The notes beneath the pieces are model-generated. The model did not search any database, had not been told where the DNA came from, and saw only the letters and a list, made by a program, of their open reading frames with translations. A stretch of 64,000 nucleotides of DNA from Bilabrum cf. latius (Eukaryota): the NCBI GenBank assembly GCA_965178125.1, contig OZ237742.1, positions 186,001-250,000 of the forward strand, written 5' to 3'. Below, piece after piece: positions 1-64,000 of the stretch. The translations under genes and the position numbers were made by a program. Numbering within the stretch: the stretch's first letter is position 1; each line of letters opens with the position of its first letter.

Positions 1-1788
1 TAGCAGAACAGAGTGTTTTCGTGTGCCAAAGGGCATACTGGACCGCTGTGTGCCGTGTGTGACTAGGCTCTGAACTATGGCGCCAGCTCAACCCCTGGAG
101 AGTGCGTTCCGTGCTACTCCGACGGTGCCAACTGGACTCTCGTCGGCCTTGGAGTGGTTGCTCTTGTGCTTGGTCTGCTGTATGTTGCAGTGCTCCAGCA
201 GCCCGACAAGAATAATAGGCTCGGTATCTTGTTCCGCATTGGAATGAATTATGTCACGGCTCTTGGAACTCTTGGTCTCTACAAGGCGAAGGGCACCGAG
301 ACCTTTCGTTTGTTGTTCGGGTGGACCGAGACAGCAGGCACAAGCCTTTTTGCAGGGAGTCCGCTTCAGTGCGCGGCGCGCCCATCTTTCGCAACTGTGT
401 TTCTTACAGCTGTGGCATTCCCTTTCGTGATCAGTGCGGTCGCCATTCTCCTGAACCTACTTGTGTTTGCTCTCGAGTCATGCACGGGGACCTTGATCCG
501 GCGAAGGGGGTTCGAGGGGTTGATGAATCTTTGTCGCTGCTGCAAAGGTAGGGCGAACGGCAAGAGTCAACCTTAGATAGCTTCTGCAACTGGAAGTGGC
601 AACTCGATGATGATATCGTCTAATCCAATATTCTCCGAAGAAGGCGGGCGCGCAGGCCGGCTCAGGTTCCAGCAAAAGCTTGATACCTCTACGCCCTCCC
701 CTTTGATAGCCCGAGGTCAAAGAGAAGCCCCGAACCTTGAGAGCGGCGGCTCAACAAGCCAGGATACAGTTGGTTCGTGTAATGCTTACAATCAGGGCGT
801 TAATCGAAGCGCCTGTTCCCGAATGGTCGACTACTTTGTGCACTTGCGGTTCCTTGGCACTGCGATCTTGGTGGTATGCCTGTCCTACGCAGTCGTGTCC
901 TCGATGGCTCTCTCGGTGTTCGATTGCCTGCCGGATGCTATCGGTGGTAAGGTGTACCTTAAGAAAGACCTCCGCGTTGAATGCAACACCGGCGGGCATA
1001 TCGCGTTGCAGGTTGGGGCTGGCCTGGTCCTGGTGATTCTCGGGCTTGGGCTTCCGATAGGCGTTGCGTACATGCTCAGAGCTGCGCCCACGGAGCGCCT
1101 AGAGAATGATGAGCTCTTTTTTGAGTAGTATGGTTTCCTGTATAAGGGCTATGACATTGCGCGCGGATTGCATTGGTGGGAAGCCATCGGGATGGTTCGT
1201 AAAGTGGCGATAGTGGCGATTGGCTCGCTCATCAAGGAGCCTTACAACGCCGTGCTGTTCTCCATCTCTGTCTCGGTGTTGGCGCTAGTGCTGCACGCAC
1301 AGTGGCAACCGTTCAGCGAGAGCGTCTTCAACAGGGTTGAGACAGTTTGCCTGGTCGCCATCGTGATCACCCAGATCCTATCGGTGTTATACTTGCGAAG
1401 CGAAGACAATGCCCTCCAAGAGGAGAGAGAGCTAGATGCACGCGCTGACAGTGAGCCGGCTAGAGTTGTCGTAGGAGGGCCTCGTATGCCTGATGGCGCT
1501 TTGAATACCACGTCTGACAGCATTTCGAGCAGAATCCAAGCCTTGCGCGACGGCACTGGATCTACAGATGCTGCTGTGACTGCCATACTGTGCCTTGTCA
1601 ACTTCGTGGCCATGATTACCCTACTGGCAGCAATGTGGGCGGTCAAAACGACCGACAAGTAGCGTGAGCAGCTGAGGAGCAGCGGCATGAAGCAACATCA
1701 ACTGGGACGTACGTAGTAGCTTGGGCAACAGCCCAAACTTGCACCGAGCCTGCACACACTGCGGCGCACATCCCCACCACAGGGTTAA
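1..1788 (+). CDS. 3' part of a Cys-rich multipass membrane protein of a common protist type (TAG=Gln)
   Basis: Frame +1 is open from the window edge to TAA at 1786-1788 if TAG is sense. It has the motif 'CAKGHTGPLCAVC', several hydrophobic segments and 'E(TAG)YGFLYKGY...WWEAIGMVRK'. Confidence 0.75.
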
Positions 1789-1799
1789 GTGTAGGCTGT

Positions 1800-3110
1800 G
1801 TCCCCCCACTGCTTCAATGAACATCCCTTGGGATCACAGGCGAGCAGAAATGTAGTACTGGATAATGAGAGAGAGTTGCGAGAAGACGCAATTCTTCCAT
1901 GCAAGGGGCCAGCAGCACGCGAGGCCCTTCCCTATTTGGATTGCAACGCATGGACGACCGTTTGTAGGGGCACGCGGCTACGTGGCTCGTAGTGCTTTGG
2001 CTCGGCTGAAATCACGTTTCACGCTCAGGTTATTGCTTGAGCCACACGTACCAGCACCTCGACGCGGTGGAGCAGGTCGAGTGCCCCGAGCCCATCTGGA
2101 ATACCTTGTACGAGCACGACTCTTTCACGCTGGCGGACATACTAGACCAGATTCCTCGCCTACAACATTGACAGCGACTTCCTGGGCGCATGCATTCCAG
2201 GCGCTGGCAGCAAGTTCGAGTTCGGGCTGAACGCAGCGATCGCCAGGTTCGCAGTCTACTTGGGCGAGGGCACGCCCATCTCAGGTGCAACCATCGGCAC
2301 GAATAGTCGCAACGAGTTCCATATCATCGTCGACTCCGAGGGAGCCTGTGGCATCTGCACGTCCAGCCAGCTCGACGCCATCCTGCGATATACGGCAAGG
2401 CTTCACTCACCACGCAGCGCCTCCATCGGTCGTCCGCACCGTTGCAAGCCATCTTACGATGCCTCACAGCAGCTGTAACCGACCCCAAGCAGCACGCAGC
2501 ACATGCAGCGATCGGGCTGTGCTTCAGCGGAGGACTACGACTCGGTGAACTCATCGGTGCCTCCCGACGCCACCACGGCCTCAAATGGCACCAAGTCGAC
2601 CTCAACGCACGAGCAGGGAAGATCTACGGCGTTGCAGTCCGCCTAGGTCTGCGCAAGGCAGATGCACCAGCAAGGTTCACTATCACGGCAGCCTCCCCCA
2701 TCAGCGTCTTGGAGAAAGCAGGGCGCTGGCGCATCAACGGCACCCAGTTCTGCGGCGTCAGGGCGTTTTGGCGTGGGCAGCAGCAGCAGTCATCCCAGCC
2801 CCGACAGCCGCAGGTGCCCCGACGCGGCAGCCGGCGCTCAGCTGCCCCAAGCAAGGGCCGGTCTTCGTGGCAGGGCAGCGGCCGCTGCTCCGTGGCCACT
2901 GCCACTTCGGCAAGGCCGAAGCAGTACACAGCCACTCCATTCGCATCGCTGCCGTGATGGGCCTGGACCGTGCCGGTGTCGCCTTCGAGACTATCTTTTC
3001 AGGCGATTCGGGCGGTGGAAGTCAGCTAGCTCGTGTTGGGTGTACCTGCGTTCAGTCAGAGAGGGCCTTGCCCCTCTTATGCTCCGTGGGACGGACCTCT
3101 AGTTGAAGCA
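1800..3110 (+). pseudogene. Decayed, frameshifted tyrosine-recombinase (DIRS/Ngaro-like) remnant
   Basis: Recombinase motifs are spread over three frames: 'LCFSGGLRLGEL' (Arg-I, about 2520-2550), 'HSHSIRIAA' (HxxR, about 2930-2950) and 'RFGRWKSASSCWVYLR' (W and catalytic Y, about 3005-3050). Boundaries are uncertain. Confidence 0.65.
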
Positions 3111-3461
3111 GCCAGCATGGGTGCTGGCGCGCGCTCTTCTGCTCGCGGTGACGTGATTCACCCGGGCAGAGGCGCACAAAGACATGGCAGGGAAAGATTT
3201 GGCGGAGTGTTGCAGTGGCTCGGCTCGGACCTGGATGAACAGGCCTAGAGCAGCGCCATCCTGCACAGCTATGTCAAGGGCTTGCCATGTCTGCTTGATT
3301 GGGAGACTAGTCTGTGCTATCATCACGAGTATCAGAGCATCAACGGTGCGACCAAGACAATCGGTAAAGATGAAGATCAATAACAGATTTCCGTTCGATT
3401 ACACAGCGCGCCTTACTTCCAGGGGTTGCTCCTGTTTCGAGGCAGTTGAATCAAAGAAATC

Positions 3462-6400
3462 ATGTCACTTAATGATATATCTGAGCATCCAGCGATTGAT
3501 TGGGTCAATACGTATACCGTGGATGTGGAAGAGCGGTACAAACGAAGGGCCATGCAAGCACCGAGAGGCGCCCGAATGACGGGCAAACCCGCTTTAAACC
3601 AATACACGCGGTAGTTTGATCCTTCTGTAAGGGCATCATCCCTGGCAACACCCGGGCCGGGGTCGTACGAGTGGACGTCAGGCGTTGACGCAACGGCATT
3701 CAAGAGACCAACTACTGCGGTGCTGCCGCCGCGACAAGCGGCCAGATTCTCGGAAGGAACTCACGTGAAAGAGTTGAATGGTTTACCTGGTCCTGGCTCC
3801 TACGACCCCTATCGCCAAGTTCGATCGCAGCCGTCTGTGGTGAAGCGGTGAGGCAGACCAAAGCGGCCTCGGGAGCTCGAAAATATTACCGCGCACGTTT
3901 TATCTTCCAGATGCACACATATATTCATCTTATTGGAAATTTGCGCAGCTAGGTTGATTCCAAGCGCGGCCGATCGCGGGCTGGGATTCGGTTCCACGGC
4001 GGAAACAAGCGCCGGCTCGCGCCTCGCCGCAGAGAAGAAATCGACGGCTGGCCGGCTCCAGGCTCGTATAACCCCAAGGCAGTGGGCGCCCGGAGCCAAG
4101 AGACGCACAGTTTCAGCAAGTCCCCTCGCGACAAGGACGCGGACCGCTTGGCCGGCCGGCATCCCCAGGACCGCATGGCCGGGCTGCTGGCCAGGGCGTC
4201 TGCGGGCGCGAGGGGCGCCGCCATGATGAAGAGTGCAGCGGCAGGTGCTGGCGCGGGTGTGGGCAATGGGACAGGCCGGGCCGACGGGCACGGGCGCGGG
4301 CTGACTGCGGCCGCCCTGCGCGATGAGTTCGCCAAGCCCGCCGTGCCCGGGGGCAGCCTCCGCCCCGTGTCCCCAGGAGGGGGTGGCTACTCCTTCTCGG
4401 GGGCGGGGAGGTTCTCCCCCGCGACGGGGGGTGTCCGGGGGTACTTTGCGTCCATGCACCGGCGGCCCATCGCGGATCGCATCAGCAGCGGGGCGCTGTC
4501 GATGAGCCTCAGGAACGCTGCGGGTGTGACGAGTGCGGGCGGGTCTGGGTCTCCTCAACGGGCACTGGATAGTCCCAGCAAGGCAGCAGCATCCGTGTTA
4601 CCATCGCCCCGCCAGCGTGGCGCAAGCACCACCAGCGCCGCCGCCGACCACCCCCCGGCTGCTGCTGCCGCTGCCTCCTCATCCACCACTGCCGCAGCCG
4701 CTGCCCCGCGATTCGCCCCCGGGTCTATCGCCGCCAAGTTTTGGGAGGGTGTCCCCGAGCACCTGAGGAACAAGGGGGTGCGGGCGGTGGAGAAGGGAGC
4801 GAGGGCGAGGTCGGCCCAGTCCCGCAGGATGGGCGACAGGCAGTGGCAGAGGCTGGCAGGGGCCAAACCCACGTCTCCTCGGGCGCTGCTGATGGCCCAC
4901 CCCGAAGATCATCCGGAATCGAAACGCAGGGACACCCTCGATCGGCCGCCGACTGCGCCCGCCAGAGAAAGAGAGAGAGGTAACGGCAGGCGCAAGGGGG
5001 CGGCCCGGCTCGCGGCCCGGCTGCGCGCACAGGACGTTGTCCGGCCCTCGACGGCGACTCGCGCGGCCGCAGACCCGCTACAAGACGCTCTCAGCCGGGC
5101 GGGCATTCCGTCCAACCTGGTGGAAGAGGCCAAAGAGTCGCTCCATGCACGAGGCCGGGGGCGAATGCGAGACCAAGAAGGAGGGGACCGTCGGTGGTGG
5201 ACAGGCGCTCGAGCGGAGGCCGCCGGGCGCGTGCTGGCGTGGGGCAGAGACGAAGTCGTGGACACCGATGGGCAGGAACAGCTGACTGCGGAGACTGGGG
5301 CGGTATGGCAGCAGCACAGGGAACAGAGCGAGGGAACACAAGGAATGGGAGGAATGGGTGGGCGCGGCGGCGGCTTGAGCACTCGCATTGTGACTCCGGT
5401 TCCCCGAGCGGGTGTGGGGCTGCAGGGCACTGCAGCGCCGAGCCCGCTTCAAGGGGCGCCCAGGTCGATGGCGGGGAGGCTGGGTGGTGCCAGGCAGCGG
5501 CCCGGCACGGGGACCCGGCTGGGAGGTGCGAGGCTCTCTGCGGTCCGAGCGGGCGCAGCCGATGGCACCAGCTCCGGGTCTGGCTCCGGCGATGTTGCTC
5601 GTTACCCACGCATGCGGCCGCAGAGCTCCAGGGCACGGCTGGTGTCTGACGATGGCCCCGGGGTGGGGCCAGGTCGGGGAGCACCCCATGTATCTGCCGA
5701 GGGTCAGCATGCACTCTCGGACGGCAGGGTCGTGGGTCTCGAGAGCACGCGCGGAGATGGGGCCGAGGGGGGAGCCGAAGTGGACGTGCCCCAGCTGAGG
5801 CTGGACCGTCTGCTAGATGGAAGCATGGGAGGTGGGGCAGGCATCTGGGGCGCTGCTATGGATGGACGCGTGGATGGACATGAAGGTGGATCTGGCCCTG
5901 GGATCGACCACCAAGGGTACGAGTCGTTCGTGGTGAGGGCCCCCGGGGTGAGGGTCTCGACCAGGTCTGGGGAACAGTCGAGCCGGTTGGGGGGGAGCGG
6001 TGCCTTGCACTCGCCCCTGCGGCAGACGGGCATTGGCCCACAGTCGGCTCGCTCCACGTCGAGGGCCAGACCCACTAGCACGCTGGTGCGGTACAACCCC
6101 AAGCCCCCGGTGCCCCCGGTGGCCAAGCCGCTCCCTGGGACGACCGATCGCAAGATTGCCGCCTTTCGCGCCCGTCGAGCCGTGATGCAGGCAGTGCAGC
6201 GGCGCCAGCGCGAGGACATGCGCTTCGAGTACGAGCGGGCGGGAGCCAGGAAGCGAGCCCGCCTGTGGCTGCAGTTCGCGTGCCTCTTCGCGCGGGTGGG
6301 TCGGATGCACGAGGCCATTCGGCGCAGGCGCAGCGAGCGACTGGGCGCGAGCATGATGAAGGCCCTGGGCATGCACAAGCGGCGGATCTTCAACGCGTGG

Positions 6401-8422: not shown

Positions 8423-11400
8423 ATGAGTGCCCGAGCAGACCATGCACCAAAGCCCTTTGTTTAGCTACTTTTGCTCAGCACCAAGAGAGCACTGCAAGCA
8501 GAGGCTTCCCTGCAGTCCTACGGGCTGTCCAATTTCGATCGTATCGATCTCATTGCCAAGTTTACCAGCAGCAGCGAACGGGAATCTTACGATCGCCTGC
8601 GCAAGCGACTGAACCATTCAGCGCTTACTCTCTGGGACGAGGATGATCACGGCGGTTTCATGCGCTGCTTTGGTTCGGCAGTGCAAGCAGCTACGGTGGG
8701 CTTCGATCCGCAGAAAGTGGCTGCGTGGGGTAGAACAACACTGGTGGCATGCGACGACACGATTTGCACTGATCCAACGTTGCTTGTTGCGGGAATTGAG
8801 TCCCTCTCATTTGCACATGGTCGCGTGCCAGACGTGTTCCACGCCAAGCTGCATCCAGGCGTTCGAGCCAGTCATGTCGGGCGGAGTGCGGGCATCAGGC
8901 CGCCGCGACTGAGTCTTTGGGGTCGATGCAAATATGTACAGGGACAAACTAGGGTAGACAAGCCGGCGGATCAAGAGGGGTTTATCTTGCAGTGGCGTAA
9001 GACCCGCCCTAAAGACCCCGACACGGGCACTCACGACTGGGCCTATCCTTTCGACCTGTGCTCGTCAGCCTACCCAACCGAGCGCCTATTTCGGCTTATC
9101 CTTGCGTTTGGACGAGCATCGGATGCATAGGGGCTCGCTTCCCAGCCGAGCTCTGCCCGCGCAGTCAGCTCGAAGGCAGGGGCAGCGGCCCGGCCACCCA
9201 GCCCAGCGACTGGCACCTGCGCCGATGGTGCTCCTCAGGCGGCCCCAGAGGTCGACGCCAGCGGCTCGCCCGCGCTTCCTGGCGTTGACGAAGGTCATCT
9301 TGGCGCAGAGTACCTGGATCACCTACCGATCATCGGCCCCAACTAGCTAGAGTACCGAGTGAACGACATGCTCGACTCTGGTACATCCAATGGCAGGTCG
9401 CTGTGGAGGGCACTCGCAGGGGAAAGCCTTTTGACAATAGATCCCGAAGTTACTGGGCCTCGAACCAGCAGCGGCACAGCCGCGGTAGAAGGAGCCCCGT
9501 CGGCGGAAGCAAGATGGATGGAATCAGGAGAGAGACCTCCCCGGCCTCTAGTGCTGTCCTGCCCCTCCCACGCCGCGGTGGTGACGCCTACATTCAACCG
9601 GGTGCAGGACGAGATGAGCAACCCTATCTTTGGTCTCAGCAAGGCGGATAAAGCGGCCACGCAAGCCCAGATGGGCGAGCTAGGGAGGGTCAAAGCACCG
9701 GGACTGGAGAGCCTGGCTGCACAGGTGGCCGCCAGTTAGGCCCAAATGGGCGAGCTAGGGAGGGTCAAAGCACCGGGACTGGAGAGCCTGGCTGCACAGG
9801 TGGCCGCCAGTTAGGCCCAGATGGGCGAGCTAGGGAGGGTCAAAGCACCGGGACTGGAGAGCCTGGCTGCACAGGTGGCCGCCAGTTAGGCCCAAATGGG
9901 CGAGCTAGGGAGGGTCAAAGCACCGGGACTGGAGAGCCTGGCTGCACAGGTGGCCGCCAGTTAGGCCCAAATGGGCGAGCTAGGGAGGGTCAAAGCACCG
10001 GGACTGGAGAGCCTGGCTGCACAGGTGGCCGCCAGTTAGGCCCGCAGCAAGCCACGCGAGCCATCGCTAGGCATTTGCACGGGCACAGATGCCCTGTAGT
10101 AGCTGTACCTGGCGGGGGCAAATATGCACGCTAACGTGTACAGTGTGCCCGGATTGCAGCACTTCTCGGTACACGTGCCAGGTCTAGCTCTGTCAGGCTT
10201 GACCATCAATCGCGCAAAGGAAGCGTCAGAAGCTGCGGCCTGCCATGGCTCCACACCGTCCGATGCAGCAAAGCCAGGCGTTGCGCCGCTCGAGTTGCCC
10301 GCACCAGCAGGCTCGCACTCGCAAGCTGTGGGGGCCGCTGCCAGCTCGGGTGTGCCACCCAAAGAAGGTGCAGATACGCTGCCCGAGGCAGAGCACCCGA
10401 TCATTTCTGTTCTCATGCCAGTCCACAACGGTGAGCGCACGGTGAGGCGGGCCATTGACAGCATCGCGCGGCAGTCGGTGCTACGAATGGGGCCCGTTTA
10501 GCTGGTCGTCGTGGATGACGGCAGCACGGATGGCACTGCTGCCGTGCTCGAGGAGTGCAAGGCGGCGATTGGCGCTGCCACTGGCGGATATTGCCTCTCG
10601 ATCGACTTGATCACGCTGCCAAGCAAGCATGGCGTGGCAAGGGCGCTGAACGTCGGTCTGTAGGCATGTCGAGCCGAGCTGGTGGCGAGGCAGGACGCGG
10701 ACGATGTCTCTTTCTTGAGTCGGCTGGAGAAGCAGCTGGCTTTCATGCGGCGGCATGCATGCATCAGTGTCCTGGGCAGTGGAGCAGTAACGTTTGATCC
10801 TAGCAAGTGGAGCTAGCTCGCGGCAGAATCGGTAGCAGACACAGCAGCCCCATCCTCGTCGCATGCACCGCCTGTGTCGTGCTGCGGGCGGGTGGTTTCC
10901 ATGCAGCCTCACCCTGTGCTCATCCGTGCCATGCTGCCCACAGAGTGTCCCCTGCTGCACCCAACCGTCATGTTTCGAACGACTGCACTGGTGAGCAAGC
11001 AAGCCGAGGTAGCTGCGCTCCGTTGTCGTAGCAATGGCGATGGGAAGGAATGCGCAGGTGCGTCTGACCCACCCACTGATGTAGTCGGTCCAAAGTAGAT
11101 GGTTGGATCAGCTGTTGCCCCCTCCCCGCCTGAATTGTACCCCGAGGACGCCCCTGCCAGCGAGGATTATGCCCTCTGGTGTGAGGTGCTGGCAAACGGA
11201 GGCAGGCATCGCAGGAGGAATGGCGGATCCACCGAGTGTGAGGCCCCGCCAGGTACTAGTAGAAGTAGTGGTTAGGGTGATTCCGACGTATCCCCCCCCT
11301 TGCTGGCAGCCAACCTGGGGGAGCCGTTGGTGTATCTATCTGTGTCACCAACCAGCCACTCGAGGTCAGAGTCCATTGCGGCTTCGAGGAACAAGGGGAG

Positions 11401-11890
11401 GCACCTGGCGAGCGCGCGGTGCGTGGGGTGCGGGTGGGGCCCGGAGGAGGTGACCGACGGCGCACATATTGACGGCGTGTCCGCTGCCCTCGTGGGTCGG
11501 GTGCTGATGGAGCCTGCGTGCTGTTCCCCGGAGGGGCTCGCTGCCATGGGAGACGAGGGGCCGAAGGTGGTGCTAGTGGCGGCGGGGCGACTGAAGGACC
11601 ACCGCGACCGGGTGGTCGCAGAGTGCAAGGCGGTTCGGAAGAGGGTTGTTACAGAAGAGGCAATCGGTGATTCCAGCGGCACGCACGAACAAAGTCGGGG
11701 TCGCCAAAGTGTCGACGAGCCTGCCGGTGCGGTGGTAACAGTGCAGCAGCCGTCCACATGGCGCGTGTACAGCTCTGCTGTGCTTGCCCAAGAGGTCCGC
11801 AGGGGGTTCGAGCGGTTTCAGAGGGCGTGGGTTGCAGTGATGCTAGGCATGGGGCAGCGAGAAACAGCCATGAAGCTGCTCATGCTATGA
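8423..11890 (+). CDS. Glycosyltransferase family 2 protein with an extra N-terminal domain (probably a second GT-A-like domain) and a repeat linker
   Basis: One frame runs from ATG 8423 to TGA 11890 with only TAG interruptions. GT2 motifs: 'ISVLMPVHNGE', 'LVVVDDGSTDGT', 'GVARALNVGL', 'ARQDADD', 'HPTVMFR', 'EDYALW'. Confidence 0.85.
9665..10039 (+). repeat. Coding tandem repeat, 5 x 75 bp (25 aa: AQMGELGRVKAPGLESLAAQVAAS-TAG)
   Basis: Five near-identical 75-bp units, differing at CAG/CAA, each ending in an in-frame TAG. Confidence 0.95.
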
Positions 11891-12257
11891 TTTCCAGAGG
11901 GAGCTGGTCGGTATCGGCAGGGGGCCATCCGAGGAGGAAGACCCACATGGCGATCCCGTGATGCAATTGGCCTAGCGAGCAGTGGACATTGCGGCACGGC
12001 TTGGGGCACGTCCTTGGAACATGGCAGGCCCTACCTTCATAGCCAAGACTCAGCAGCCTTCGCGCATGGAGCCTACCGAACACGGAAAAACTGCTGCGAC
12101 CTTGCCACTTCCCGCGGCCTCGAAACGAACCTTCACGAATGCGGTAAAGTGGTGCGGGAAAGAAATCGGATCGAAGCTGCGATCATGGCCGTAGTGGCGA
12201 AGGGATTAGAACGTTCAAATGGGCCGACTACCTTGACGCTGAAACGGCTGGCATGGC
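11830..12257 (+). repeat. Dispersed direct duplication, copy 1 (internally deleted copy of 13942-14407)
   Basis: Near-identical sequence from 'ggttgc(a/g)gtgatgctaggcatggggcagcgagaaac' to 'gaaacggctggcatggc', with short deletions relative to copy 2. Confidence 0.9.
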
Positions 12258-12418
12258 TGCAGCGCGTGGGCCGCTCACACACGGCCACGGTGAGTTGCGA
12301 GTGATTTGAAAAGTCAGATTCGAGCCAGCGCGACGCTGAGCGCGTGCTCGCCTCCCTATATCTCACAGCAGCAGTCCCCCTTTCCGTCGAGACGCGGCGG
12401 CAAGTACACAGAAACAGT

Positions 12419-13207
12419 ATGTTCCTCTTAATTGCGACGTGTCTTGCAGCAGCTCTAACCTCGGTTCACGGCCGTCGCACGCGCAATCACGTTCTGCGCC
12501 AAGGCCAGAAGAGCCTCTAGCCGCCACCCTCTGCGCCCTCGGGCTCGGCAACGGAGCTATTCAATGGCGACCTAGAGTCGTACGATAGTGCAGATGGTTC
12601 CGCTTCAATTCGTGCGGGCCAGTGCCTGCGCTCGGGGGAGCATTTGATCAAGGACGTTGGCAAATTGCGCTCTGGCAGAAAGGGCAATGCTGATCACAGG
12701 TCGGTGTGGTTCACCAGGTACGAGCTGAGGATGCAGGATGACTGCAATGCAGTGCTTTACGAGCACAAGGCATTCGGAACCGCGGACGACAAGTACTTCG
12801 AGCACGACGAGCAAGGCCAAATTTCGCCAAACTACGACCAGAAGGAGGCGATAAATGGCTACAACCGGGGTCTGCGACGGACAGTTTGGTCAAGCGGCAC
12901 AGATGAACAAGGTGCTGGCTGCCAACTGGTGCTTCCCGAAGCGGGAGATGCCCCGAAGTAGTCGCTAGCAGTGGTAGCCGGCAATGGCACGATCGTGTGG
13001 TCCTCCGACGCAGAGCTGCAGTCATTCGAGATTTCGCCTTGTCTCAACAAAGAAGACCCCCGCATCCTCGCCACAGGGCCCGACGGCTCCCAGGTCGATG
13101 CTGTGCTGCCTGAAATCGAGGGGTGGAAGCCATACGGATGCGACAAGAAGTTCAAGCACAATGACGATTACCTGGGTCGGGGCGAGAACTGCCGGTACAT
13201 CGGTTAA
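12419..13207 (+). CDS. Secreted bulb-type (GNA/B-type) mannose-binding lectin domain protein
   Basis: ATG at 12419 with signal-peptide-like 'MFLLIATCLAAALTSVHG'. It has the QxDxNxVxY motif 'MQDDCNAVLY' plus 'VWSSGT' and 'IVWSS'. Two in-frame TAGs; ends at TAA 13205-13207. Confidence 0.75.
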
Positions 13208-23610: not shown

Positions 23611-23688
23611 GCGAGGTTGCGTGCGAATTGAGAGTTTCACGAGAAAAATCGCAAAACTACGGGAGATATTTCCTTTTGTTGCAAAGGT

Positions 23689-49884: not shown

Positions 49885-52831
49885 TCACGCTGGATGGACC
49901 TTTCTGGTGCCCCCAACAGGGAGAACTCCGACCGACTTGGCGCGTCCCACTGTAGATGCATGGTTGTCACTATCCTCACCGGCACTTTTGGAATGATAGG
50001 CACGTGTCCTCGTGGATTGAGAGGACTGGAGCTGTCCTCCTCTCGGAGACAAGCCGCCAGCAGGTTCGCCGTCGTCCATTCTATGTGTTGTATCCATCCC
50101 CCCGGGCCCCTCCGGTAGAGCGTGCTGCTACTCATCATCGTGTCCAGTCTTTGAGCGCTACCCAGCTGCCTCTTTTGCCGCCTCTGCTGCAATGCGGCTG
50201 TTTCTGCTCCGCATCCTCACACTCTGCTGCAGCTGCTTGGCCATCTGGTCGTCCTGCACCACACGGGCGTCCGCGTACATCTCGACCTCGTGCATCCTGC
50301 GCACCGCAGGAGCCGGCCGGACCCTGCCCCTACCACGCCCTCTCCCCCCATCACGACCACGTCCTCGTCCTCGTCCGCGCCCTCTCCACCCCGGGGCATG
50401 CCTGCCACCCGAAGCGCCGATCGCCCCTTGTGTCCCCTCCTTAGCCACCCTCGCCTCTGCCACCACAGGGCCCCCGAGTGGGTACTGGTGATCCCCGCGG
50501 TACTGCCCTCCGCGGGAGCCCACGCTCGTCACGTTCCGAGAGAACTCTCCCGGCCACTTCTGCCCTGCGCCGCGGCTGTGCTGCCTCAGGAGTCGCCCCC
50601 GGAGCCTCGCCCTCTGCTTGGCCTTGAACGCCTGCTGCGCGAGGGCAAACTGCAGGGCAGTGGTGGCTCCGGGCGCGATCACAAAGGACGGGGGCTTAAC
50701 CATCATCCGGCTGCGGTGATGCGTTGCTGCGCCAGCCTAACTCCCTTGCGTCGGTCTTGCCGCCATCTCTGGGTTGGACGCGGCTCGAAACAGCGGGGCT
50801 GCGCCTTCGCCAGCCTGATCTGCTGGACCCCCCGCATCCTTGGTTCTCCCCTTTTCGCCTGCATCGCCATCGTCGCTCTCTTCTCCTTCTTCGTCCACGC
50901 TCTCGAGCCGCATGCTGCCAGTCAGCGACCGAAGGGACGCCCCTCTGGTGCGCGGCATACTGCCGGACTACCCCTCGGGAACTGGAGTGGCCCGCAGCAA
51001 GTTCCGCAGGGAGCCCATCATGCTGAATCCTGGCAGTGCTGCCATGGAGGCGGAGGCTGACCGTGGGAGGTACCTCCCTTCGCCTGTTCCTTTTGAGGAC
51101 ATGCCTCCTCCTTCTTCCCCTTGCCCCTTCGACTCGGTTGGTGCTGCTCCTGCCTTCGTGTCGGCACTTCCACTCCACTCTCGTCCTTCCTCATCGTCAT
51201 AGTAATCGTAATCGTAGTCCTCCTATTCCCCTCCCCACCCATCCCCATCCATGTCTCCCGCATCAAAGTCCGTCTCATCGAAGAGCTTCACCAGGGCCAT
51301 CCCGTGCTCCACCTCGTCTAGCCCGATCCTCTCGTCCTCCTCGGGCACGCGGATGCCACCGCAGCACCAATCCCAGCTACCGAACGATACAAGCCCGACG
51401 AGCACAGCAAACGCGGTAACCACACCGACGGTAGCCAGCTGCGCCCCGATTAGATCGAGCTTCCCCGTGCGCAGGAGACCTGCCTCAGGGCCGAGCAGCC
51501 CAGCCAGCAGCAGGCCCACCGCCCCGACGCCTCCGTGGAGCCCAGAGGCCTGCGCGGGGTCGTCAACGCCCAGATGCACGAGCATCTCGCCGAAGAAGAT
51601 CGCAGCGGGTCCTCCGATGCACCCGCACAGGAAGGCCTCCCACGCGTCAAACAGATCAGCCCCCGCTGTAATGGCCACTAGACCTCCCAGCGTGCCTCCC
51701 GCGAGATCCACCACGTCTAGGGTCGTGTTCCCTGACTTCCAGTAGCCGTACACGATGGAGGCGACCACGCCGCCACCCGCCCCGAGGGCCGTGTTCATGG
51801 CGACTTTGCCTGCGAGGGAGGAGACCCCGTTGGAGATGCCCAGCGTGGAGCCGGCGTTGAAAGCGAGCCATCCGGCCAGAAGCAGGAAAGTTCCGAATAA
51901 TACGTTTGTACTAGACGAGCGGGTGGGCCAGTAGCGCCTGTCCTTGCCGGTGCCCGTGAACACCCCGATGCGCGGGCCGAGCATCACTGTACCGACTAAT
52001 CCTTGAATCCCCCCCACCATATGCACGGCCGAGCATCCTGCAAGGTCGTGGGCTCCGAGCGAGTTGAGGAAACCGTCTTCGTGCCAGATCCACCGGGCTG
52101 CGAGAGGGTATGCGAGCCCTGTGCTCACGAAGGCGATCCAGAGGTACGCCTTGAACACCAAACGCTCGGCCACAGACCCGCTAATTATGGTCGTGCTTGT
52201 TGCCGCGAACGCGAATCCAAAAACCCACAACGGATAGTCGGCGCCCCCGAGCTTGAGAGCGAACATGTCTGCGGGATCAAACCCGATAAAGCCGGACACT
52301 GGGCCGCCCGATGCGCTCTGAAGCGTCCACCCAAAGCACAAGAAGGCTGCAGCACTGATGCCAATGTCGGCTGCGTTCTTCGATATGACATTACCAGATG
52401 AACGCATCTGCGTGTCAAAATGGGGTGTACAGTAGAAGCGCTTGGTACAAGTCAGCGAGCATCCCGCAGTGGCAGTAGAAGCTCACCGACACCAATCCTG
52501 ACTCGAGCATGGCAAATCCTGATTGCATCTGCGCGCTAATCTTGATCATACTGGGGTGCAAGTTGACGTCAGTGAATGCAGAGCGCAGCAAGTCAAGACC
52601 ACAACAAGCAACGTGCGGCCTCACACACAGAACTACAAAGGCGCATGCAAGCATCCACCCGACGTCAGAATCAATGTTTGATTGTAGGATATCCGCATGA
52701 GCTTGCTGCACCTCATCTTCGAGCTTGTGTATGTACTTCGCTACAGTGTCATTGGCGTTGAACTGGCCACCAATCAGGCCTTCGATGGTATGCAGTCGAT
52801 GGTCAAGTGCGTCAATTTGTGACTGTGACAT
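49885..52831 (-). CDS. amt: Ammonium transporter (Amt family) with a long low-complexity C-terminal tail
   Basis: 'MQSGFAMLESG', 'TTIISGSVAER', 'HDLAGCSAVHMVGG', 'LGPRIG', 'WLAFNAGST', 'LGGLVAITAG', 'VDDP...LHG', 'RVPEEDERIGLD'. Predicted introns 52529-52624 and 52408-52486. Reads through several TAGs to TGA at 49887-49885. Confidence 0.9.
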
Positions 52832-53053: not shown

Positions 53054-55240
53054 GCTCAGCCAGCAGAGTGCGCAATGGAAGCAAAGCAGGGCGATCGTGG
53101 CGCGAATGACCACTCGTATGGCCCCGACGGTGAGGCGGAGGGTGAACGCTGTGGGTGGTGTTTTCGATGTGTTTCAAGGTATGGCTGTTGAACACATGTC
53201 GAGCTTCTCGGAGCCTGTCGTACGCGAGGCTGTGAACATGCTAAACAAAGAAGGGGCAGATGCGCAGCGGGCTCTGTTGGGCAGCTGCGTACGCGGCCAC
53301 ACGCCGGTCGCTTCCCTGGGCGCAGCGGCTGCCGTTATGGGCGTGTTCAAACCGACCACGACGCCAGACGTGGAATCGGGCCTGCGTAGCGCTCTGGAGG
53401 CGGCAGCAGGGTTCTCAAAGGACGATCTGATGCCCGAGGACCATGTTCGTCGGCGAGCGCGGCGACGGGTGGAAACTCAGGCCAAGATGCGACGGGCAGC
53501 AATGGGGTGCCCCCACTCTGGGGAGCACCGGTGATCCCGGTACCATCCGGGGCATCAACAACAGCACCATTCACGGGGTCAAGGCCTGAACGTGTAGCCG
53601 GGGGGCCGATGGGAGCGCACTCACTGGGCCGGGGCATCATGGACGGTGGCGGGTTTGGGTGGAAACTGCCTGCCCCAAGCGGGGGGGCCGGTGCAGGGGC
53701 GACTGCTACCTCAGGCCATCCGCCGAGCGAGCTGGGCCTCTTTGATTTTGGGGGCGGATTCAGCCATGGTGGAGTGACTGCGGCCGATGCTGGGGCGGGT
53801 GGCAAACCAGCGGGAGGTCCAACGGCAAGCCGCGGTGCCAGCGCGGTGTTTGGGGCACAGGCGTCGATGGGCACCATCTCGGGCGCAACGCTGGGAAAAA
53901 GGGGGAGAGCGGAAGAGGGGGGGGAAGCACAAGCTCCCTGGGAGGCCATTGTGGCGGATTCGGAACGTCGCACCAAGGCGGCAAGGCGCGAGCAAGAGGT
54001 CGAGGGAGCATCCGCGGGAGCAGGAGAGGCGACCGCGAGTGACGCGATCGACAAGCGAATTCAACAGGCGGTTGCGGCCATGGCATCGGGTGAGCCCAAT
54101 GGTACGTTGTAGTTGCTCCGTGCCCTTGCGCTTGAGTTAAATGCCCGGCCCGAGCACTCCACCCAGGCGATTAAGTCGTCAGCCGGCGCCTGCAAGAAGT
54201 CACCATACCAGGGCCAGGTCGGAGCAGACGATGGAGACGGCGCCAAGGAAGTGCATAATTCCATTCCCACGGCGAAGGGAGTTGACTCTTTGTTCTACGA
54301 CACCGTACGGTCTTAGGAGGTGCTTCAATTTAGGGACAGTGCACGGTATTTGGCCGAACTCGGGGAGGAAGGCGAGAGAGCTAAGGACTTGGCCTCAGTG
54401 GCGCTGACGAGTGCGGACAAGGCAAAGATTTCGTTGCTTCGGATTGAACGCCCCGCGCAGATAATGTTCGCTTCTATGGCGAGTGCGGCTGGTTTTCGCC
54501 GGGAGTCAGGATCTGGCCGCAGCTTTCATGTGGCACCGGTGCTGGAGGAGGCGGGTGATTTGCTCATGCCGGACGGGATCAGGCAATTTGCGAGTAAGTG
54601 CGGGTAGCACGTGTTGTCGGGAGTGGCAGAACTGGAACAAGGCAACATTTTTCGATTACCCACGATATTGACCAGATCGGTGTGTGGGGCGCTCGAGTGG
54701 GTCGTGGCAGGGAGCACGTCGTTGCTGAAGGTGGTTATCAAACTTGCGACACTGCTGCACCAGGATAAGCATGCGGAAGCCAGGGCAGTAATGAGCAAGC
54801 TTCACGAGGCGTTGGAGATTGCAGTGCGAAGAATGTTCTTGGGCTTAGGGATGGTCCTTCATGCGGCAGCAGTCCGCACGGCAGGTTGAGGCAACGGGGA
54901 CACAGCCAATACGGGTCAGCATTTCGTGTTAGCAACTGCTCTGCGCATGATTTTGATACATAGGGTGGCACCAGTGGGGAGAATGGATACTCCTGCGGTG
55001 CTTCGACTGTGGTAGTTGCGGAGCGAGAACGAGACCCCGCTGCGGATGACGCAGACTCAGGTGGGGCCCACGTGGGAATTACTGGGACTGAATCCGGCAG
55101 GCAACCATAGCGCTATGGCGTGGGAGGATGTGACAGCCGCGATAGACAAGTCAGCATTGGAGCGAGCAAAGCGGGTGGCAAAGGAGCATGGGGCCGCAGC
55201 TGGAGGAGCGGGGGCAGCGGCAAAACGGTAGTCAGCGAAG

Positions 55241-55271
<31 letters not shown>

Positions 55272-55400
55272 CGAGTGCGGGTGGACAAGAGTCGCAGCAG
55301 GAGTCAGAGCGCCACAAAGGGACGACATCGGGGCCCAAAACGTAGGCGGAGCACCGTACCTCCCCAAGACGAAGTGGCCGACTAGCGGGGAATGGGTGAC
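53052..55400 (+). pseudogene. ORF1 (gag-like position) of the Ngaro element, apparently disrupted
   Basis: ATG at 53052 at the end of A1. There is an apparent frame change near 53440-53510 and an in-frame TGA at 54887-54889, after which the same frame continues. Identity is inferred from position only. Confidence 0.55.
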
Positions 55401-57791
55401 GCGGCCCGAGCCAGGGGAAGGGCTGCAGTAGTGTAGGCATGTGCACTATCTTCGGAAGCAGCGCAAAAAATCCTGGCTCAGCAGAAGACTCCGACCCTAC
55501 AGCGTGGTGAGCCGAGCCTGCGGACACTGGATGGGCGGTGCATTGTGACGGACATCATGGAACACGCGGACGAATTGTTGGACTAGGTTGCATCTGCAGG
55601 CCCCTCGAGACGATGGCACGAGGTGCAGATGGAAGCAGCCGGCTATTCTGTGGACAATGACGGTGATGCGGGAGCGGGGATGACTGGGGATGCGCCGTCA
55701 GCATTGGGTGCGGACGGGATGTGGTAGGCTTGGGCACGATGCCTGGCAAAGCGGGACAAGATTGACTTGCGGTCATTCCCACCGGGCTAGGCACCATCAT
55801 CTGCTTTGGACGTCTGGTATGGAACGTTGTCACACTGGGAGCGTAGGGGCGAACTGCAGCAGGGGGAGCGATGGGCAGCGCGCTAGCCGTGTACGCTGTC
55901 ACCTCGTGGAGCATGGCAGGCACATTTGGCTCGTTGTCGACGCTGCGGGGCGCGGGGCGCAGTGGAGCCCGATTGTGTAGCGGGCCGGGGGTTTGTTGGA
56001 CTGGCACGACATGGGCTTCGGGCGGAGGCAGTCTTGAAGGTGTTGGGGGCGCAGCCGGTACGGGCTGACCCGAAGGACTTGCCGGCGGACGAGGAGGATG
56101 TAGTCCCGTTCGTGGAAGCAGCAGCGAGTGCAGGCAAGATTCGACCGGTGGAGGGCGCCGCGGTCTAGGTGACGCCTATGTTCGTTGCCAAGAGGACCGC
56201 AATCGAGGTACAGCAGCGGGAGGGTCAGACACCACGCTTGGTGCAGCGGGAGGACACGACTGGCAAGCAGCGCCTAGTCACGGATATGAAGCGCTCGGGC
56301 GCGAACGAGGCATTTCTTGACTTGCGTTTCCGGTATGGTGATTTTGCTCGGCATTTAGCAGAGCGCGTGGGACGTGACAGGCACGAATGGGGGGCAGCCT
56401 TCGATTTCAAGGCGGCATATCATAGTATAGCGCTGGCACCGGGGCTGCAGCGATGGATGGCAGTTCGCGGAGTGGGTGGCAGCATGTTTTAGTTTGTGGT
56501 CTTGTCGTTTGGTTGCAGAATGGGCTGTTTTGTCGCATCAGTAGTGTTGGCAGAGTGTCTAGCGGGGGTGCGACTGCGCACCGCACATTGGGCTTTTGGG
56601 TACATTGATGATGGCTTTCTGTCAGCACGTACGGAGGCCCGCACTATGTAGTTGTTGTGGTGTGCCGTGCTTGTAGCGCGGGGGATTGGCATGAGGATAT
56701 AGCCTAGCAAACTTACCTTTCCAACATAGGTGATTGAGTTCCTTGGGCTAAAGATTACCCTGGGAGCCCACTTGAAGGTGACACTGCGCTCGGATCGATG
56801 GCCACGGATCCACGCAGTGCTGAGGACCGTTGAGCGAATGCGAGCTTTCAACATGCTAGCAACGAGTGCGCTGGCGGTCAAGGCTGTGGAGAAACTGGCA
56901 GGACAGTTGGGCGCGGCTGCGGCAGTAATCCCCCACGCTTCGCAGCACGTGTTTGCGATATACTAGGCGGCTGCAAAGGCTCGCAAAGGTGGTAGGCACA
57001 TCTGGACGGCAGAGTTCAACGAGGAATTTGAGTGGTGGCTGACATGTAGGGACCGCGGTATCTTGACAGCGGCAGCAGCTGCACCGATATACCCGTTGCC
57101 GGAGGGGAGAGCATCCGTGTTTTGTGCTGACGCGTCAGCCCATGGACTGGGTGCAATGTGGCGCCGAGGCAATGGTGATTCTGGCTTGATGCAAATGGGT
57201 TTCCACGAGGACATGCAGTTACTATCCAGTACGGCACGCGAACTAGCATCACTACGAGCTTTTTTGTCAGGACCAGGCTAGTTGGCGAGGAGCCAGACTT
57301 GCCCAGAGGCGCTCTTCGTGCTGTCAGACAATCAAGCCCTGCCAAATTTGCTGCGGAAGGGCGGCTCGATGAAGGCTGGGTAGCGAGATGAGCTGCGAGA
57401 GATTGGAAGGCTGGCTGAGAACTTGGGATACGTTATCTTCCCCGTGTGGTAGCGGCGAAGTACACCGATCATGGTGGCATGCGATAGATTGAGCAGGGTG
57501 GAGGACGGTGCTGGTCAACTGGTGTAGACGGCGGGGCAGCGCGTGGGCAAAACGGGGTTTGTCTCGGCGGCAAGGGCGACATCTGACTCAACTTTTCATG
57601 CACCATTTCATCTTCGCAGGACCATTTGGGGAGCTGATCCCAGTGACTGGACGAGCAGGCTCAAGTGCTGCGGCACAACGGCGAGCAGCGGTGGCGGCGA
57701 CTAGGACCCTGATGCTGTAGGAGAGTCAGCAGCTCGGCAAGGGAGCTCTGGACGCGCGCAGGCGGAATCTGACCATGCAGGCGGAACTTGA
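55188..57791 (+). CDS. Ngaro/DIRS reverse transcriptase-RNase H ORF (TAG=Gln)
   Basis: 'PMFVAKR...GKQRLVTDMK', 'FDFKAAYHSI', 'F(TAG)FVVLSFG', 'GYIDDG', 'IEFLGL'; RNase H 'ADASAHGLG', 'STARELAS', 'LSDNQ', 'CDRLSR'. Stop TGA 57789-57791; start uncertain. Confidence 0.88.
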
Positions 57792-58836
57792 GGTCGTGGA
57801 TCCGGTGGAGGCCATGTGGGCTTTGCTGACGGAGTAGTGCGCCGCCGGGTTGAAGTATGCCACAGTGTTGCGATTGTTCCAAGCGCAAACGGCGTGGTTC
57901 AGGTCAGCGGAGTTCCCGCGTACCCCACTCGCAGACGTGGAGTACAGGCAGGTCAAACTGGCCCTGCTCGGCTACAAGCGTAGATGTGCCGGGGCGACGG
58001 ATCCGGACGCGGTACGTGCCCTACGTGTCCTGGTGGACAACCCTGTAACGTTGCGAGCACTAGTGATGATGGCCTGGTAGCTGCAGGCAGAGTGGGATTC
58101 GATGTGGCAAGGCCCAGCTGCGCTGGCCCGTGCGGACTACAACTCAACACCAGCGGTTCTCGATACATTTATGTGCTGCTATGTGGGGACATTCTGTGGC
58201 TTGGCCCGGTGGCCAGATCTGGTGCATCTGGCAATAGGGGAGATAGAGTGGACTGCAGCGTCTGATGACAACGAGGTTGTTCCCGTGGCACTGATTGGGT
58301 GGCAGCGGTACAAGTCGCGGGTGCTCGGCGGCAACCCCGAGCAGCGCCCGCCAGCGGTCATTCCATGCTTGCCGGATGGATTCGAGGAGTTGTGCCCGTA
58401 TCGGTGGCTGAAGTGGTGGGTATCAGTTCGGTAGCCAACACAAGGGCAGCGCGGGGAAGTATTCGCCTCTCGAACACGGGCTGCGCACAGTGCCACGCTG
58501 CAGTGGATAACAGCGCAAGGGATTCCTGTGCACCGCAAGGGGGAGGGTGTGTACGCCTTCAAGAGTGCGGGAGTGTCAGCATTGCGCCAGACGGACCCAA
58601 CCAAGGACGAGAAGTACGTGCACGGCCAGGCTGGGTGGTCTCTGCCCAACATGCCAGCGGTGTATGATCGTTACTCATTGATGGAAGCGGCAAGGGTTAC
58701 GAGGAGTGGGATTCTTCGGGCTATGGTGGGAGCTGGCTCCATCCCAGAACTTCTGAAGATTTGGGAATCCCAACGCAGGGAGCTTTACCGGAGCCCAGTG
58801 AGCAGTGGTGGGGGTGAACGGGATTCAGGGCTCTAA
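57598..58836 (+). CDS. Tyrosine recombinase of the Ngaro element (TAG=Gln)
   Basis: 'GTFCGLARWPDL' (Arg-I), 'RYKSR' (Lys), 'LCPYRWL', 'GVYAFKSAG', 'AGWS...MPAVYDR' (catalytic Tyr). Overlaps the RT ORF; stop TAA 58834-58836. Confidence 0.8.
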
Positions 58837-61043: not shown

Positions 61044-61171
61044 CCCTGAACGCGCACACTTCCGGTTTTCCTGACTTGGCAAGGGCCGAGCAAACATTGT
61101 CAATTTTGGCGCTACTGAATTGAAAATGACCCAAAAACCAACATCAAAAAGTTTTCATTGATGAACTCACG

Positions 61172-63667
61172 ATGAACGATTGCGCTTGTGCACAGTGTCA
61201 CGGCGCCAGACGACGACTATAGTCCCTTTTGTTCGTTTCGAGTAGTTTCGAGTCGTCACCTGGAGCAAGCCAAGCAGTATTAGCATGTAAATGTATGCTT
61301 AACGCCCACAATAAAGCTTTATTGGATCGTTGGGTTGGGAAAAGGGGACCTGAATGGGCTTTTCCGACGCCTTTCCTGAGGTTCAGATTGTCGGGCTAGC
61401 TGCCTTCGCCTCGTGGTGGCATCTCGAGCATCCACGCTGGCAGCCAGAGGGGTATCGTATTTGTCCTCGGGTGTGGAAGGTCAGGTACAACTGCAGTCGC
61501 GAGGTTCCTTGCGAGTGATGCGAATTCCGTCCACCTGAACGAGCCTCGAGCCCTGTGGATCCCGATCGAGAAATCGCTCGATGTGTGGTCCACGCTGAGC
61601 TGGTAGCGCCAGGGCAGGCTTGCGCGCAACCCACTTACCCGTACTCAGGCTAGTGCAATATCAGGCTATATCGCGCGCGAGGCGGATTGTATCCTGGCTG
61701 CCTAGCCCGACTCGGAGCGCTCACTGGCAGGCAGAGCAGCCTCGCGGACCGACGCCGTGGCCGGTGCCGTGGCCGGTGCCGGTGCTGGTGCCGGTGGTGA
61801 CACGTTAAGCGCTGCCAATGGCAGTGGATCGATGATTGGACCTAATAAGGGCACTAGCATGCGAAACGGCCCATTGATCGTGCACAAGATGCCCGAGGAT
61901 GCCTTCAGGATCCGGGCGCTGCTCCCTTTGGGTCACATGTTGGCTGTGGCGGCACAATCTCCAGATGGTGCGGGCAATGGACCTCCACTAGCATCGCCCG
62001 CACCGACAGCAGGAGGCGCACCAGGCCTGGATAATCAGCGTGGCACCATCGCCGGCTCGCAGGGCCCTCCCTGCCGAGTCGTGCTGGTGCATACCACTCG
62101 CTCTTTGCTGGGCATCGCCAAGTCGATCGGCAAGTTCTCCGCTCCTGCGTGGTTTGGGGAGCCCCCGACACCTGACGAGTGGGCTCGTAGGCTCAGAGAG
62201 CACAGGCAGAGCAAGCGAAAGGCACAGAAAGGAAAATCAAGGGAACAGGGGTCTGAAGTTGCGCGGCAATTCGGGCCAGGTGCAGAGTGCACCAGTGATG
62301 AATCGGTAATCAGAGGCTTGGCCACGCAGTCCGTTGGCATCGGCGACTTTCTATTGTCGCTGGAGATGTGCCGGGCGAGCAGCTCCGTCCGGGTGCTAGC
62401 CCGGAGGGGACCGAGACACGCCAAATGGGCGGCGCTCGGGCTGGCCGCGGCTTGCCTCGACCGCGAGTTGGGTGAGGTGCCGGGTCATGTACGCGAGGCA
62501 GTCCACCAGTGGAGTGCCGCAGAATTCAGCCATGTTGAAGCCCTCGGAAGGTGGAAGCAGGGCAAAATTTTGGCTGCGAGTAGTAGGCTAGACGGGGCAG
62601 GGGCAAAGCCACGGGCAGGGACAGCTGGGGGGACAGAGCAGGGCCAGGAGTCATCTGTCATGGGCAGGTCTGACGACGGCACAGTCTCGGTTGGTGGTCC
62701 TGGCTGCATGCTGCGCGCTTGGATTGCGGTCAGCGAGTTCTGCGCTTTGGTAGGCGGTGGCGGCACTGTCGCAGACACTGGCTCAATGATCGAGCGGGTG
62801 CGTCAAGAGGATGACGATGTTGGCTCAATCATGAGAGGTGTAGTGGAGTCGCGCGGTTTGACCAGTGGTGTTGCGAGCGCAAGTGACCGTCTGCAGGCCG
62901 CCATGCCACTGATGGCTGCGATTGAGAGGGCGGTGTCTATGGTTACTGCACGGCTGCACGCCCTGATGCTCCAGCAGGAAGGCAGGCTGCTCGTCTATGC
63001 ACTGAGGCCGCCTTCGACTGGACCGCAGCACGCCCAGCCCCTGTCGCCATCACTGCTGCCGGTCTGCGAGCTGCTCGGAGGACATACCGGTGGCGGCCAG
63101 TTCCGCCTCGCGCCGATCAGGCCGATCAAGCCCTGGGAGGACACTGATAGCCCAAGCTCCAGCTCCAGCTCCAGCTCATCATCGTCTGCTGCGACCGGGG
63201 ACGGGGACATTTCTGATTCCGGATTGCTCACACCCGTGCTGCTTGAGGTCGACCACAGTACATTTGTGGCAGACCCTGCGCGGCTGTATGGGGTCGTGCG
63301 GCTCCTCTAGCAGCAATTGCAGCAGCAGCAGCAGCAGCAGCGCGGGGGTGTCCTATTGGGCTCGACCGTGCTGGACGCGCCTCTGCCCCCTCTCCCTCCC
63401 GAGGTGCGGCGGGCCTGCGAGGGCGTGCTGGCCTTCGGGAAAAGGCGCGGGATGACTAGGAGTCGGGCTGTCGGACCACTGTGCGATGCCGAGGGGTGTC
63501 ATCCCGCAGAGGGATCGGCTACTCGACCTCGACCTCGGTGCAGTCGTCCATCCCTGGTGTGGGCGGGCATCGTCTCTCGGCTGCCCGCCGTGATGGTGCT
63601 CGTGATGTGGGGCACCGTTTCTGGGTGCCATCATTGGAGCACTGGCAGGCAGGGTGGCGTCGGGTGA
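61172..63667 (+). CDS. Sulfotransferase-family protein with a long C-terminal extension
   Basis: PAPS-binding loop 'IVFVLGCGRSGTT' (about 61454-61495), 'HLNEPRALW', 'IVHKMPEDAFRI', 'VLVHTTR'. One frame with TAG=Gln to TGA 63665-63667. Start is 61172 or 61295. Confidence 0.72.
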
Positions 63668-63844
63668 TGGCAGATCTCTCGGTGGCTGGTACGACCGCAT
63701 CATCGTCGTTGTGTTGCATTGCCACACACATGCATGTCGACCACCACGCACTCATCACAGCTTTTTGCGGAACCGCGCGGCGGCCCAGGATTCCGGAAGG
63801 ATCGGCCCGTCAGCTGGCCGTCACCTATCTATCAAGGAGCAAAC

Positions 63845-63991
63845 ATGGCTGCAAGTGGAGTTTCAGCTAAGGAGCTGTTCGAAACCGACCCTATTACACT
63901 CACGCGATGGCTACTTAGCGAGCAAGCTCGCCATAAGGGAGCTACGGGTGACTTCACACTCCTCATGCAGTCAATTCAGCTGGCAAGCAAG
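63845..63991 (+). CDS. fbp: Fructose-1,6-bisphosphatase class I, first exon (continues beyond the window)
   Basis: 'MAASGVSAKELFETDPITLTRWLLSEQARHKGATGDFTLLMQSIQLASK' matches the FBPase N-terminus and is followed by a GTGAG donor at 63992. Confidence 0.82.
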
Positions 63992-64000
63992 GTGAGACCA

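Follow-up and report, generated by a model that had tools for sequence, protein, structure and literature searches.

The DNA analysed here comprises 64,000 nucleotides of contig OZ237742.1 of Bilabrum cf. latius (assembly GCA_965178125.1, positions 186,001 to 250,000 of the forward strand); this whole stretch is referred to as the window. In its genes the triplet TAG is an ordinary sense codon and TAA and TGA are still terminators, a division that is well supported. Given that TAG is sense, glutamine is its best-supported meaning and, judged from sequence comparison, quite probably the correct one. We consider it likely that the window stems from the nucleus of a eukaryote with few introns and GC-rich DNA, the cytoplasmic ribosomes of which would read UAG as sense, presumably as glutamine, and would stop at UAA and UGA. 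Such a code would involve a glutamine-charged tRNA with the anticodon CUA, most simply derived by mutation from a duplicate of tRNA-Gln(CUG), together with an eRF1 for which UAG would no longer be a release signal. As argued in PMC5304391, no anticodon but CUA can read UAG without reading UAA as well.

Stop triplets in coding frames

With a G+C content of 62%, the window contains five frames of at least 500 amino acids under the standard code, 19 with TAG as sense (the longest with 1,812 amino acids) and 23 with TGA as sense. Frame length alone is weak evidence for a sense TAG, since reading TGA as sense also lengthens frames in GC-rich DNA. Eighteen long frames were examined with TAG read as sense. 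Each contains at least two in-frame TAGs; 15 end with TGA and three with TAA, and a TAG terminator is needed by none. Their 17,426 codons include 131 TAG, 512 CAG and 189 CAA, corresponding to a TAG share of about 0.75% of all codons and about 16% of TAG, CAG and CAA combined. Pfam domains continue across in-frame TAGs in nine genes. According to Pfam, the TAG-spanning frames code for a glycosyltransferase family 2 (GT2) protein, an ABCG/PDR transporter, a non-long-terminal-repeat (non-LTR) reverse transcriptase (RT), DNA polymerase eta (Pol eta), an APE2-like protein with a GRF domain, an LtrA protein, an ammonium transporter, a DIRS-like RT and a protein resembling the catalytic subunit of Rab3GAP.

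A stricter count was made in homology-bounded spans, i.e. stretches flanked on both sides by Pfam envelopes or by alignments to relatives (5,786 codons). These hold 46 in-frame TAGs, no TAA and a single TGA, which is the conserved terminator of the ABC transporter gene; internal TAA and TGA are absent. Over all frames of the window 875 of 2,770 stop triplets are TAG, and under these frequencies, which would apply to random or decaying frames, 46 TAGs out of 46 have a probability of about 1e-23. If TAA related to TAG as CAA does to CAG (0.32), the same spans should contain 14.7 in-frame TAAs. In-frame TAA as common as TAG, which an earlier interpretation made from the letters alone (the sequence-only reading) had regarded as an argument against its proposal of a sense TAG beside the stops TAA and TGA, is thus not found. 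The proposal itself is borne out by these counts together with the RNA-type contigs, a TAA in front of a poly(A) site and a conserved TGA, all described below. A noisy test on adjacent open segments returned TAG 16 times, TGA six times and TAA never for segments of at least 150 codons, and 27, 24 and four times, respectively, at 100 codons. Residues neighbouring TAG are enriched 1.24-fold in glutamine and 1.31-fold in glutamate, which is not informative on the amino acid.

The individual sites quoted in the sequence-only reading were found where it had placed them: TAG at 26830–26832 in Pol eta (CYAxME, with TAG at x here and below), at 22273–22271 (DxAGFR) and 21991–21989 (GTPxG) in the non-LTR RT on the minus strand and at 56490–56492 in the DIRS-like RT (FxFVVLSFG), as well as the frame-closing TAAs at 1786–1788, 13205–13207 and 58834–58836.

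TAG in spliced and polyadenylated transcripts

Seven runs match the window, four of them DNA-type and three RNA-type (X5, X6 and X7, from two further studies). Contigs of X1 (DNA-type) and of X5, X6 and X7 were aligned to positions 10100–30099. For this stretch no run is registered as RNA, and the RNA nature of X5–X7 rests on their splice joints and poly(A) end. Five GT..AG introns are skipped in their contigs and not in those of X1 (14577>14774, 15006>15145, 18816>18938, 23784>23872 and 23946>24035), and a poly(A) run closes one X6 contig behind position 13303.

Fifteen in-frame TAGs are unchanged on pieces of X5–X7 contigs that have zero differences from the window, or one elsewhere (15603). 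Two of them (12518, 12959) are all the in-frame TAGs of a small plus-strand gene (12305–13207, TAA end) and are retained in the polyadenylated contig. Three more (15286, 17035, 18262) are the coding TAGs of the ABCG/PDR-type transporter gene (14320–19300, plus strand), whose exons as seen from the joints are 14320–14577, 14774–15006, 15145–18816 and 18938–19300. The last exon of a low-complexity gene without Pfam family (24035–26641, plus strand) has nine in-frame TAGs, seven of which (24176, 24404, 25985, 25997, 26147, 26150, 26273) lie on a spliced RNA-type contig with zero differences. The remaining three (28024, 28210, 29059) belong to the seven in-frame TAGs of the Pol eta gene (26773–29241, plus strand). 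At least 11 of the 15 are found on contigs that also bear a splice joint or a poly(A) tail. Since the same TAGs occur in spliced and polyadenylated contigs, assembly error and wholesale RNA editing are excluded, and the occurrence of TAG in spliced mRNA, implied by the sequence-only reading, is confirmed.

Four TAGs do not belong to the coding set, as the joints of X5–X7 place the pair 14710/14713 in an intron, and 23882 and 23891 outside the true frame. The ABC gene intron at 15007–15144 has 138 bases and is open in frame throughout. In one contig of X5, position 12215 is followed directly by 14366, so that the whole gene at 12305–13207 is skipped; the ends are CT..AC, and 42 letters can be assigned to either side. 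This joint may reflect a chimeric assembly or a minus-strand transcript.

Termination by TAA and TGA

Only two 3' ends are fixed independently. Behind the TAA at 13205–13207 no further in-frame stop occurs up to the poly(A) site 96 bases on (13303), so this TAA must terminate the gene 12305–13207. The ABC transporter gene and its orthologue on a metagenome contig (see below) both have their TGA directly behind ...NYQ(K/R)R, in matching positions. A code with UAR (UAA and UAG) as glutamine, the pattern of NCBI table 6, was also considered and is excluded by the lack of in-frame TAA, set against the 14.7 expected, and by the TAA that ends the gene 12305–13207.

Relatives that probably share the code

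A protein search with Pol eta revealed a relative in Logan, represented by P0001 and by four more fragments that match the GT2 gene; over 1,090 residues in total, its identity with the window is 83%. Its database proteins are fragments produced with the standard code. Three of its open reading frames (ORFs) stop exactly at TAGs of the window, namely 29059 in Pol eta and 10499 and 10814 in the GT2 gene (8423–11890, plus strand, 15 in-frame TAGs, TGA end). Five TAG sites of the window are covered by Logan residues, with glutamine at 28024 (Pol eta) and 10661 (GT2).

A second relative is represented by the metagenome contig L001 (6.9 kb), found by a scan with the ABC exon of the window. Its ABC orthologue, aligned along 1,222 codons with 78% identity, contains four in-frame TAGs of its own. 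Three of these face CAG in the window, twice with identical flanks, and one faces TCT. TAG thus occurs in L001 at three of 42 CAG codons of the window, in comparison to none of its 77 GAG and GAA codons. From these two sets of sequences, the code is probably common to at least two organisms related to that of the window.

Further observations concern the layout of L001. Positions 2535–2690, compared with window position 16108, appear to be an extra intron of about 156 bases, at which the DNA alignment breaks and the frame shifts. Upstream of the ABC orthologue, the end of another gene (2–505) contains six in-frame TAGs in 167 codons and closes with ...LPST and TGA, resembling the end of the window gene 24035–26641 (...IPST and TGA). 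An alignment of the low-complexity C-terminus 25700–26641 with this gene end was too unreliable and was not used. By the resemblance of the two ends, gene order may differ between the two organisms.

The amino acid encoded by TAG

In Pol eta, TAG 26830 lies on a column that the sequence-only reading had described as strongly conserved glutamine. This description was too strong, as of 99 homologues 40 have Q in this column and 56 have A; Q stands in all six named chlorophyte rows, and E in none of the 99.

The second line of evidence is provided by a high-copy, transcribed non-LTR retrotransposon (element 19438–23800, ORF 19958–23764 on the minus strand) with 10 in-frame TAGs, two of them at conserved RT glutamine sites. 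GTPxGEILSP aligns with GVKQGDPMSP in both matched solved R2 chains, and DxAGF aligns with RQRGF in one of the two. In RTs generally, the motif B glutamine hardly varies. In the DNA-type run the element reaches a contig depth of 250–1,650, compared with about 11 for its neighbours, and RNA-type contigs cover it. The ABC gene lies on one side of the element and the next gene on the other. Pfam revealed no endonuclease domain in the 1,268-amino-acid frame of the element, and no other copies of the RT region were found at E ≤ 1e-20 among proteins of 256–818 amino acids.

The third is a DIRS-like retroelement (53192–58836, plus strand) with three overlapping or adjacent ORFs, the last of which ends with TAA. 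Its RT/RNase H ORF (55134–57791) was compared with 1.84 billion protein representatives, and the best 150 of 353 matches were used. Among these, 12 related fragments place 25 residues opposite 10 TAG columns: Q eight times (in six columns), R and C five times each, and neither E nor S. In the column PTxVIEFLG, 72 of 137 distant homologues among the same 150 matches have Q. RVT_1 was found in the element itself; its distant homologues carry RT and RNase H, and a Dam-like methyltransferase was seen in one of eight scanned. In 57493–58833 no recombinase domain was found with Pfam. The TAG density of the RT/RNase H frame is 2.0% (18 of 885 codons), compared with 0.75% (131 of 17,426) over the 18 long frames.

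All close comparisons were pooled in a likelihood based on BLOSUM62. Glutamine fits best, followed by R, E, K and S, which are 11.3, 16.6, 17.2 and 20.8 natural-log units behind. Leucine is opposite TAG in no close comparison (Logan, DIRS or L001). Serine, the meaning of UAG in Scotinosphaera, was tried as a candidate and rejected, as it occurs in two of 12 host-gene and none of 25 DIRS comparisons and has the 20.8-unit deficit just given. Those sites that do not tolerate glutamate, RT motif B and the Q/A column of Pol eta, point to glutamine. ARAGORN revealed no tRNA gene in the 64-kb window, and a search with Rfam yielded no family, tRNA included, in the window or in L001. An eRF1 gene is likewise absent from the window.

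Weighing of alternatives

Several observations weigh against glutamine, or against so simple a code, and most of them concern glutamate, the meaning of UAR in Blastocrithidia and peritrich ciliates. Of the five TAG sites covered by the Logan relative, two (28210 in Pol eta and 11096) have E; D occurs once, next to a gap. In addition, one of its ORFs ends opposite GAG 8798 of the window, where the type of stop is not visible. At ordinary sites of the same alignments glutamine and glutamate interchange at none of 37 Gln and none of 46 Glu sites. In Pol eta, three of five TAG columns are dominated by E (46/109, 51/97 and 52/109), and PxR of the APE2-like protein aligns with PER in 6wcd_A. The three coding TAGs of the ABC gene face CCC, TCC and GCC in L001. 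A Codetta-like sum over distant profile columns puts E first (0), before A (−0.3) and Q (−2.2 natural-log units), although such distant profiles cannot separate Q from E. If TAG did encode glutamate, its glutamine matches would be Q/E exchanges caused by T-to-C transitions. We regard this as unlikely. The TAGs of L001 face CAG three times and never one of the 77 glutamate codons, the DIRS fragments have Q eight times and E never, E is absent from the CYAxME column, Q stands in both R2 chains at GTPxG, and in the pooled likelihood E trails by 16.6 natural-log units. Even where Pol eta has a genuine CAG or CAA, eight of 12 columns prefer E to Q; E-dominated distant columns are hence usual for real glutamine codons and say little. 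The sequence-only reading, which equated TAG with glutamine and counted alignment with glutamate as contrary evidence, consequently stands in part. Codons of close relatives, DIRS paralogues and RT glutamine sites agree with glutamine; the two Logan sites and the three Pol eta columns do show glutamate, and the distant profiles are indifferent.

TAG could also be sense without a clean single assignment, being translated as several residues, e.g. glutamine and glutamate, or as another residue, or terminating depending on context as in the ambiguous codes of ciliates. Matches of TAG sites to Q as well as to E are far more frequent than exchanges between the two at ordinary sites, and TAG sites are much less conserved than glutamine sites, as Q is found at five of 12 covered host-gene comparisons compared with 31 of 37 for CAG and CAA sites. 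TAG may serve as an occasional terminator, and the data comprise 64 kb of one genome and one 6.9-kb contig. Nevertheless, such decoding is, in our estimate, very unlikely: no TAG terminator is required by any of the 18 frames, serine, leucine and lysine fit poorly (S and K by 20.8 and 17.2 natural-log units), and GAG-to-TAG mutation at tolerant sites is a simpler account of the E matches. TAG sites are probably fast-evolving, tolerant positions, some of which arose from GAG by a G-to-T change. Among the relatives, with L001 represented by its positions 1559–5450, these sites turn over fast, and two of the 12 host-gene comparisons are E.

In principle, the standard code could be retained if the TAGs were due to faulty assembly, were edited in the RNA, or were nonsense mutations of pseudogenes and defunct transposons. 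Two TAG-rich frames are indeed transposons, in which C-to-T decay of CAG would place TAG at glutamine sites, and partial editing may occur, since contigs drop rare variants. This explanation is hardly credible in view of TAGs that are identical in one DNA-type and three RNA-type runs (three studies in total), also on contigs with splice joints or a poly(A) tail, the 46 TAGs without internal TAA or TGA in homology-bounded spans, further TAGs in the orthologues of two relatives, and the mostly synonymous differences among the copies of the non-LTR RT (17 of 26 listed). A sense TAG, quite probably read as glutamine, accounts for these results best.

Other features of the window

The window opens with the 3' part of a gene for a multi-pass membrane protein without Pfam family (1–1788, plus strand, seven in-frame TAGs, TAA end). 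Within the GT2 gene a 75-bp tandem repeat (9665–10043, plus strand) comprises 5.1 copies with 99% identity, and each 25-codon unit closes with an in-frame TAG. Downstream of Pol eta, two genes lie on the minus strand. One resembles the Rab3 GTPase-activating protein catalytic subunit (29368–34806, eight in-frame TAGs). The other is the APE2-like gene (34954–38133, 11 in-frame TAGs), in which an N-terminal Exo_endo_phos domain and a C-terminal GRF zinc finger share a single frame; a CCTGCA hexanucleotide repeat of 27.8 copies (35258–35424) inside this frame codes for a long Ala-Gly run. The C-terminus of Pol eta, VVNLLSDSDSD (29190–29238), has a similar stretch in the APE2-like protein, VVVDLLSDSDCDSD (about 35770–35810, minus strand). 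This hydrophobic-then-acidic motif is common to the two repair proteins, and in Pol eta it lies downstream of two TAGs.

Farther along, a low-complexity ORF (38877–41660, plus strand) contains 13 in-frame TAGs, two of which (40755 and 40920) lie within poly-Gln runs. It is followed by an LtrA-family membrane protein gene (42814–44817, plus strand, three in-frame TAGs), a large ORF with a weak HEAT-like match only (44909–49591, plus strand, five) and the ammonium transporter gene (49885–52482, minus strand), whose five in-frame TAGs are confined to the C-terminal tail, with none inside the Pfam domain. Behind the DIRS-like element, an ORF with a weak sulfotransferase match (61130–63667, plus strand) has five in-frame TAGs.

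Relation to known codes

A few comparable systems have been described. In Iotanema spirale (Fornicata), UAG codes for glutamine and UAA and UGA are stops, with a predicted tRNA-Gln(CUA) (PMC5304391). As here, UAG alone is reassigned in Iotanema, which is not a ciliate, and UAA and UGA terminate; glutamine as the meaning of UAG would be a further shared feature. The primary terminator of Iotanema, which is known from its transcriptome only, is UAA, whereas TGA ends 15 of 18 frames here; with 18 genes this is only a hint. Among ciliates, Protocruzia tuzeti and phyllopharyngeans are described with UAG-only reassignment to glutamine or leucine (PMC11687900), so that they share the decoupling of UAG from UAA, with glutamine as one outcome. 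The window would differ from these ciliates in its closely spaced genes on 64 kb, 62% G+C, spliceosomal introns and retrotransposons, and it had been judged to look non-ciliate in the sequence-only reading. In ulvophycean green algae UAR is reported as glutamine, and in Scotinosphaera UAG as serine with TAA as stop (PMC8271138). The latter resembles the window in having a sense TAG beside the stops TAA and TGA; here, in contrast, TAA is not sense and serine fits the TAG sites poorly. The rhizarian exLh, for which UAG as leucine and UAA and UGA as stops are given (PMC5304391), likewise has UAG alone reassigned, but leucine is never opposite TAG here in close comparisons. In these sources, nuclear codes that split the meanings of UAG and UAA are very rare and comprise Iotanema, a rhizarian, Scotinosphaera and a few ciliates. 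Apart from Iotanema, no GC-rich non-ciliate in which UAG means glutamine came up in a literature search that did not cover the supplementary tables of PMC5304391 and PMC8271138.

Named Pol eta homologues nearest to the window belong to Viridiplantae (37–49% identity). In a quick maximum-likelihood tree of 40 rows the window has a very long branch outside the sampled Viridiplantae and Galdieria and apart from Fungi, a placement that is not to be trusted.

Taken together, the variant nuclear code seen in the window is real and belongs to the known UAG-only type, probably as a new case among such codes. The organism of the window and its Logan and metagenome relatives may form an unpublished clade of GC-rich non-ciliates, assigned by Pol eta to none of the sampled groups, in which UAG is fixed as glutamine, UAA and UGA are stops and the change arose independently of Iotanema and ciliates; we rate this a little below even. 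On this reading, the fast turnover of TAG sites, some of which would lie on ancestral glutamate codons, hints at an ongoing influx by GAG-to-TAG mutation. If the independent clade is real, genomic DNA is at hand from which the predicted tRNA-Gln(CUA) and the changes in eRF1 would be directly readable. The authors of the Iotanema and rhizarian study state that identification of the responsible tRNA awaits genome sequences (PMC5304391). As the present case offers genomic DNA and spliced RNA as well as two or more relatives, it could allow a direct study of the tRNA, of eRF1 and of the sequence of events in the reassignment. Annotation with the standard code would fragment nearly every gene of this genome, as has already happened to the database proteins of its relatives.

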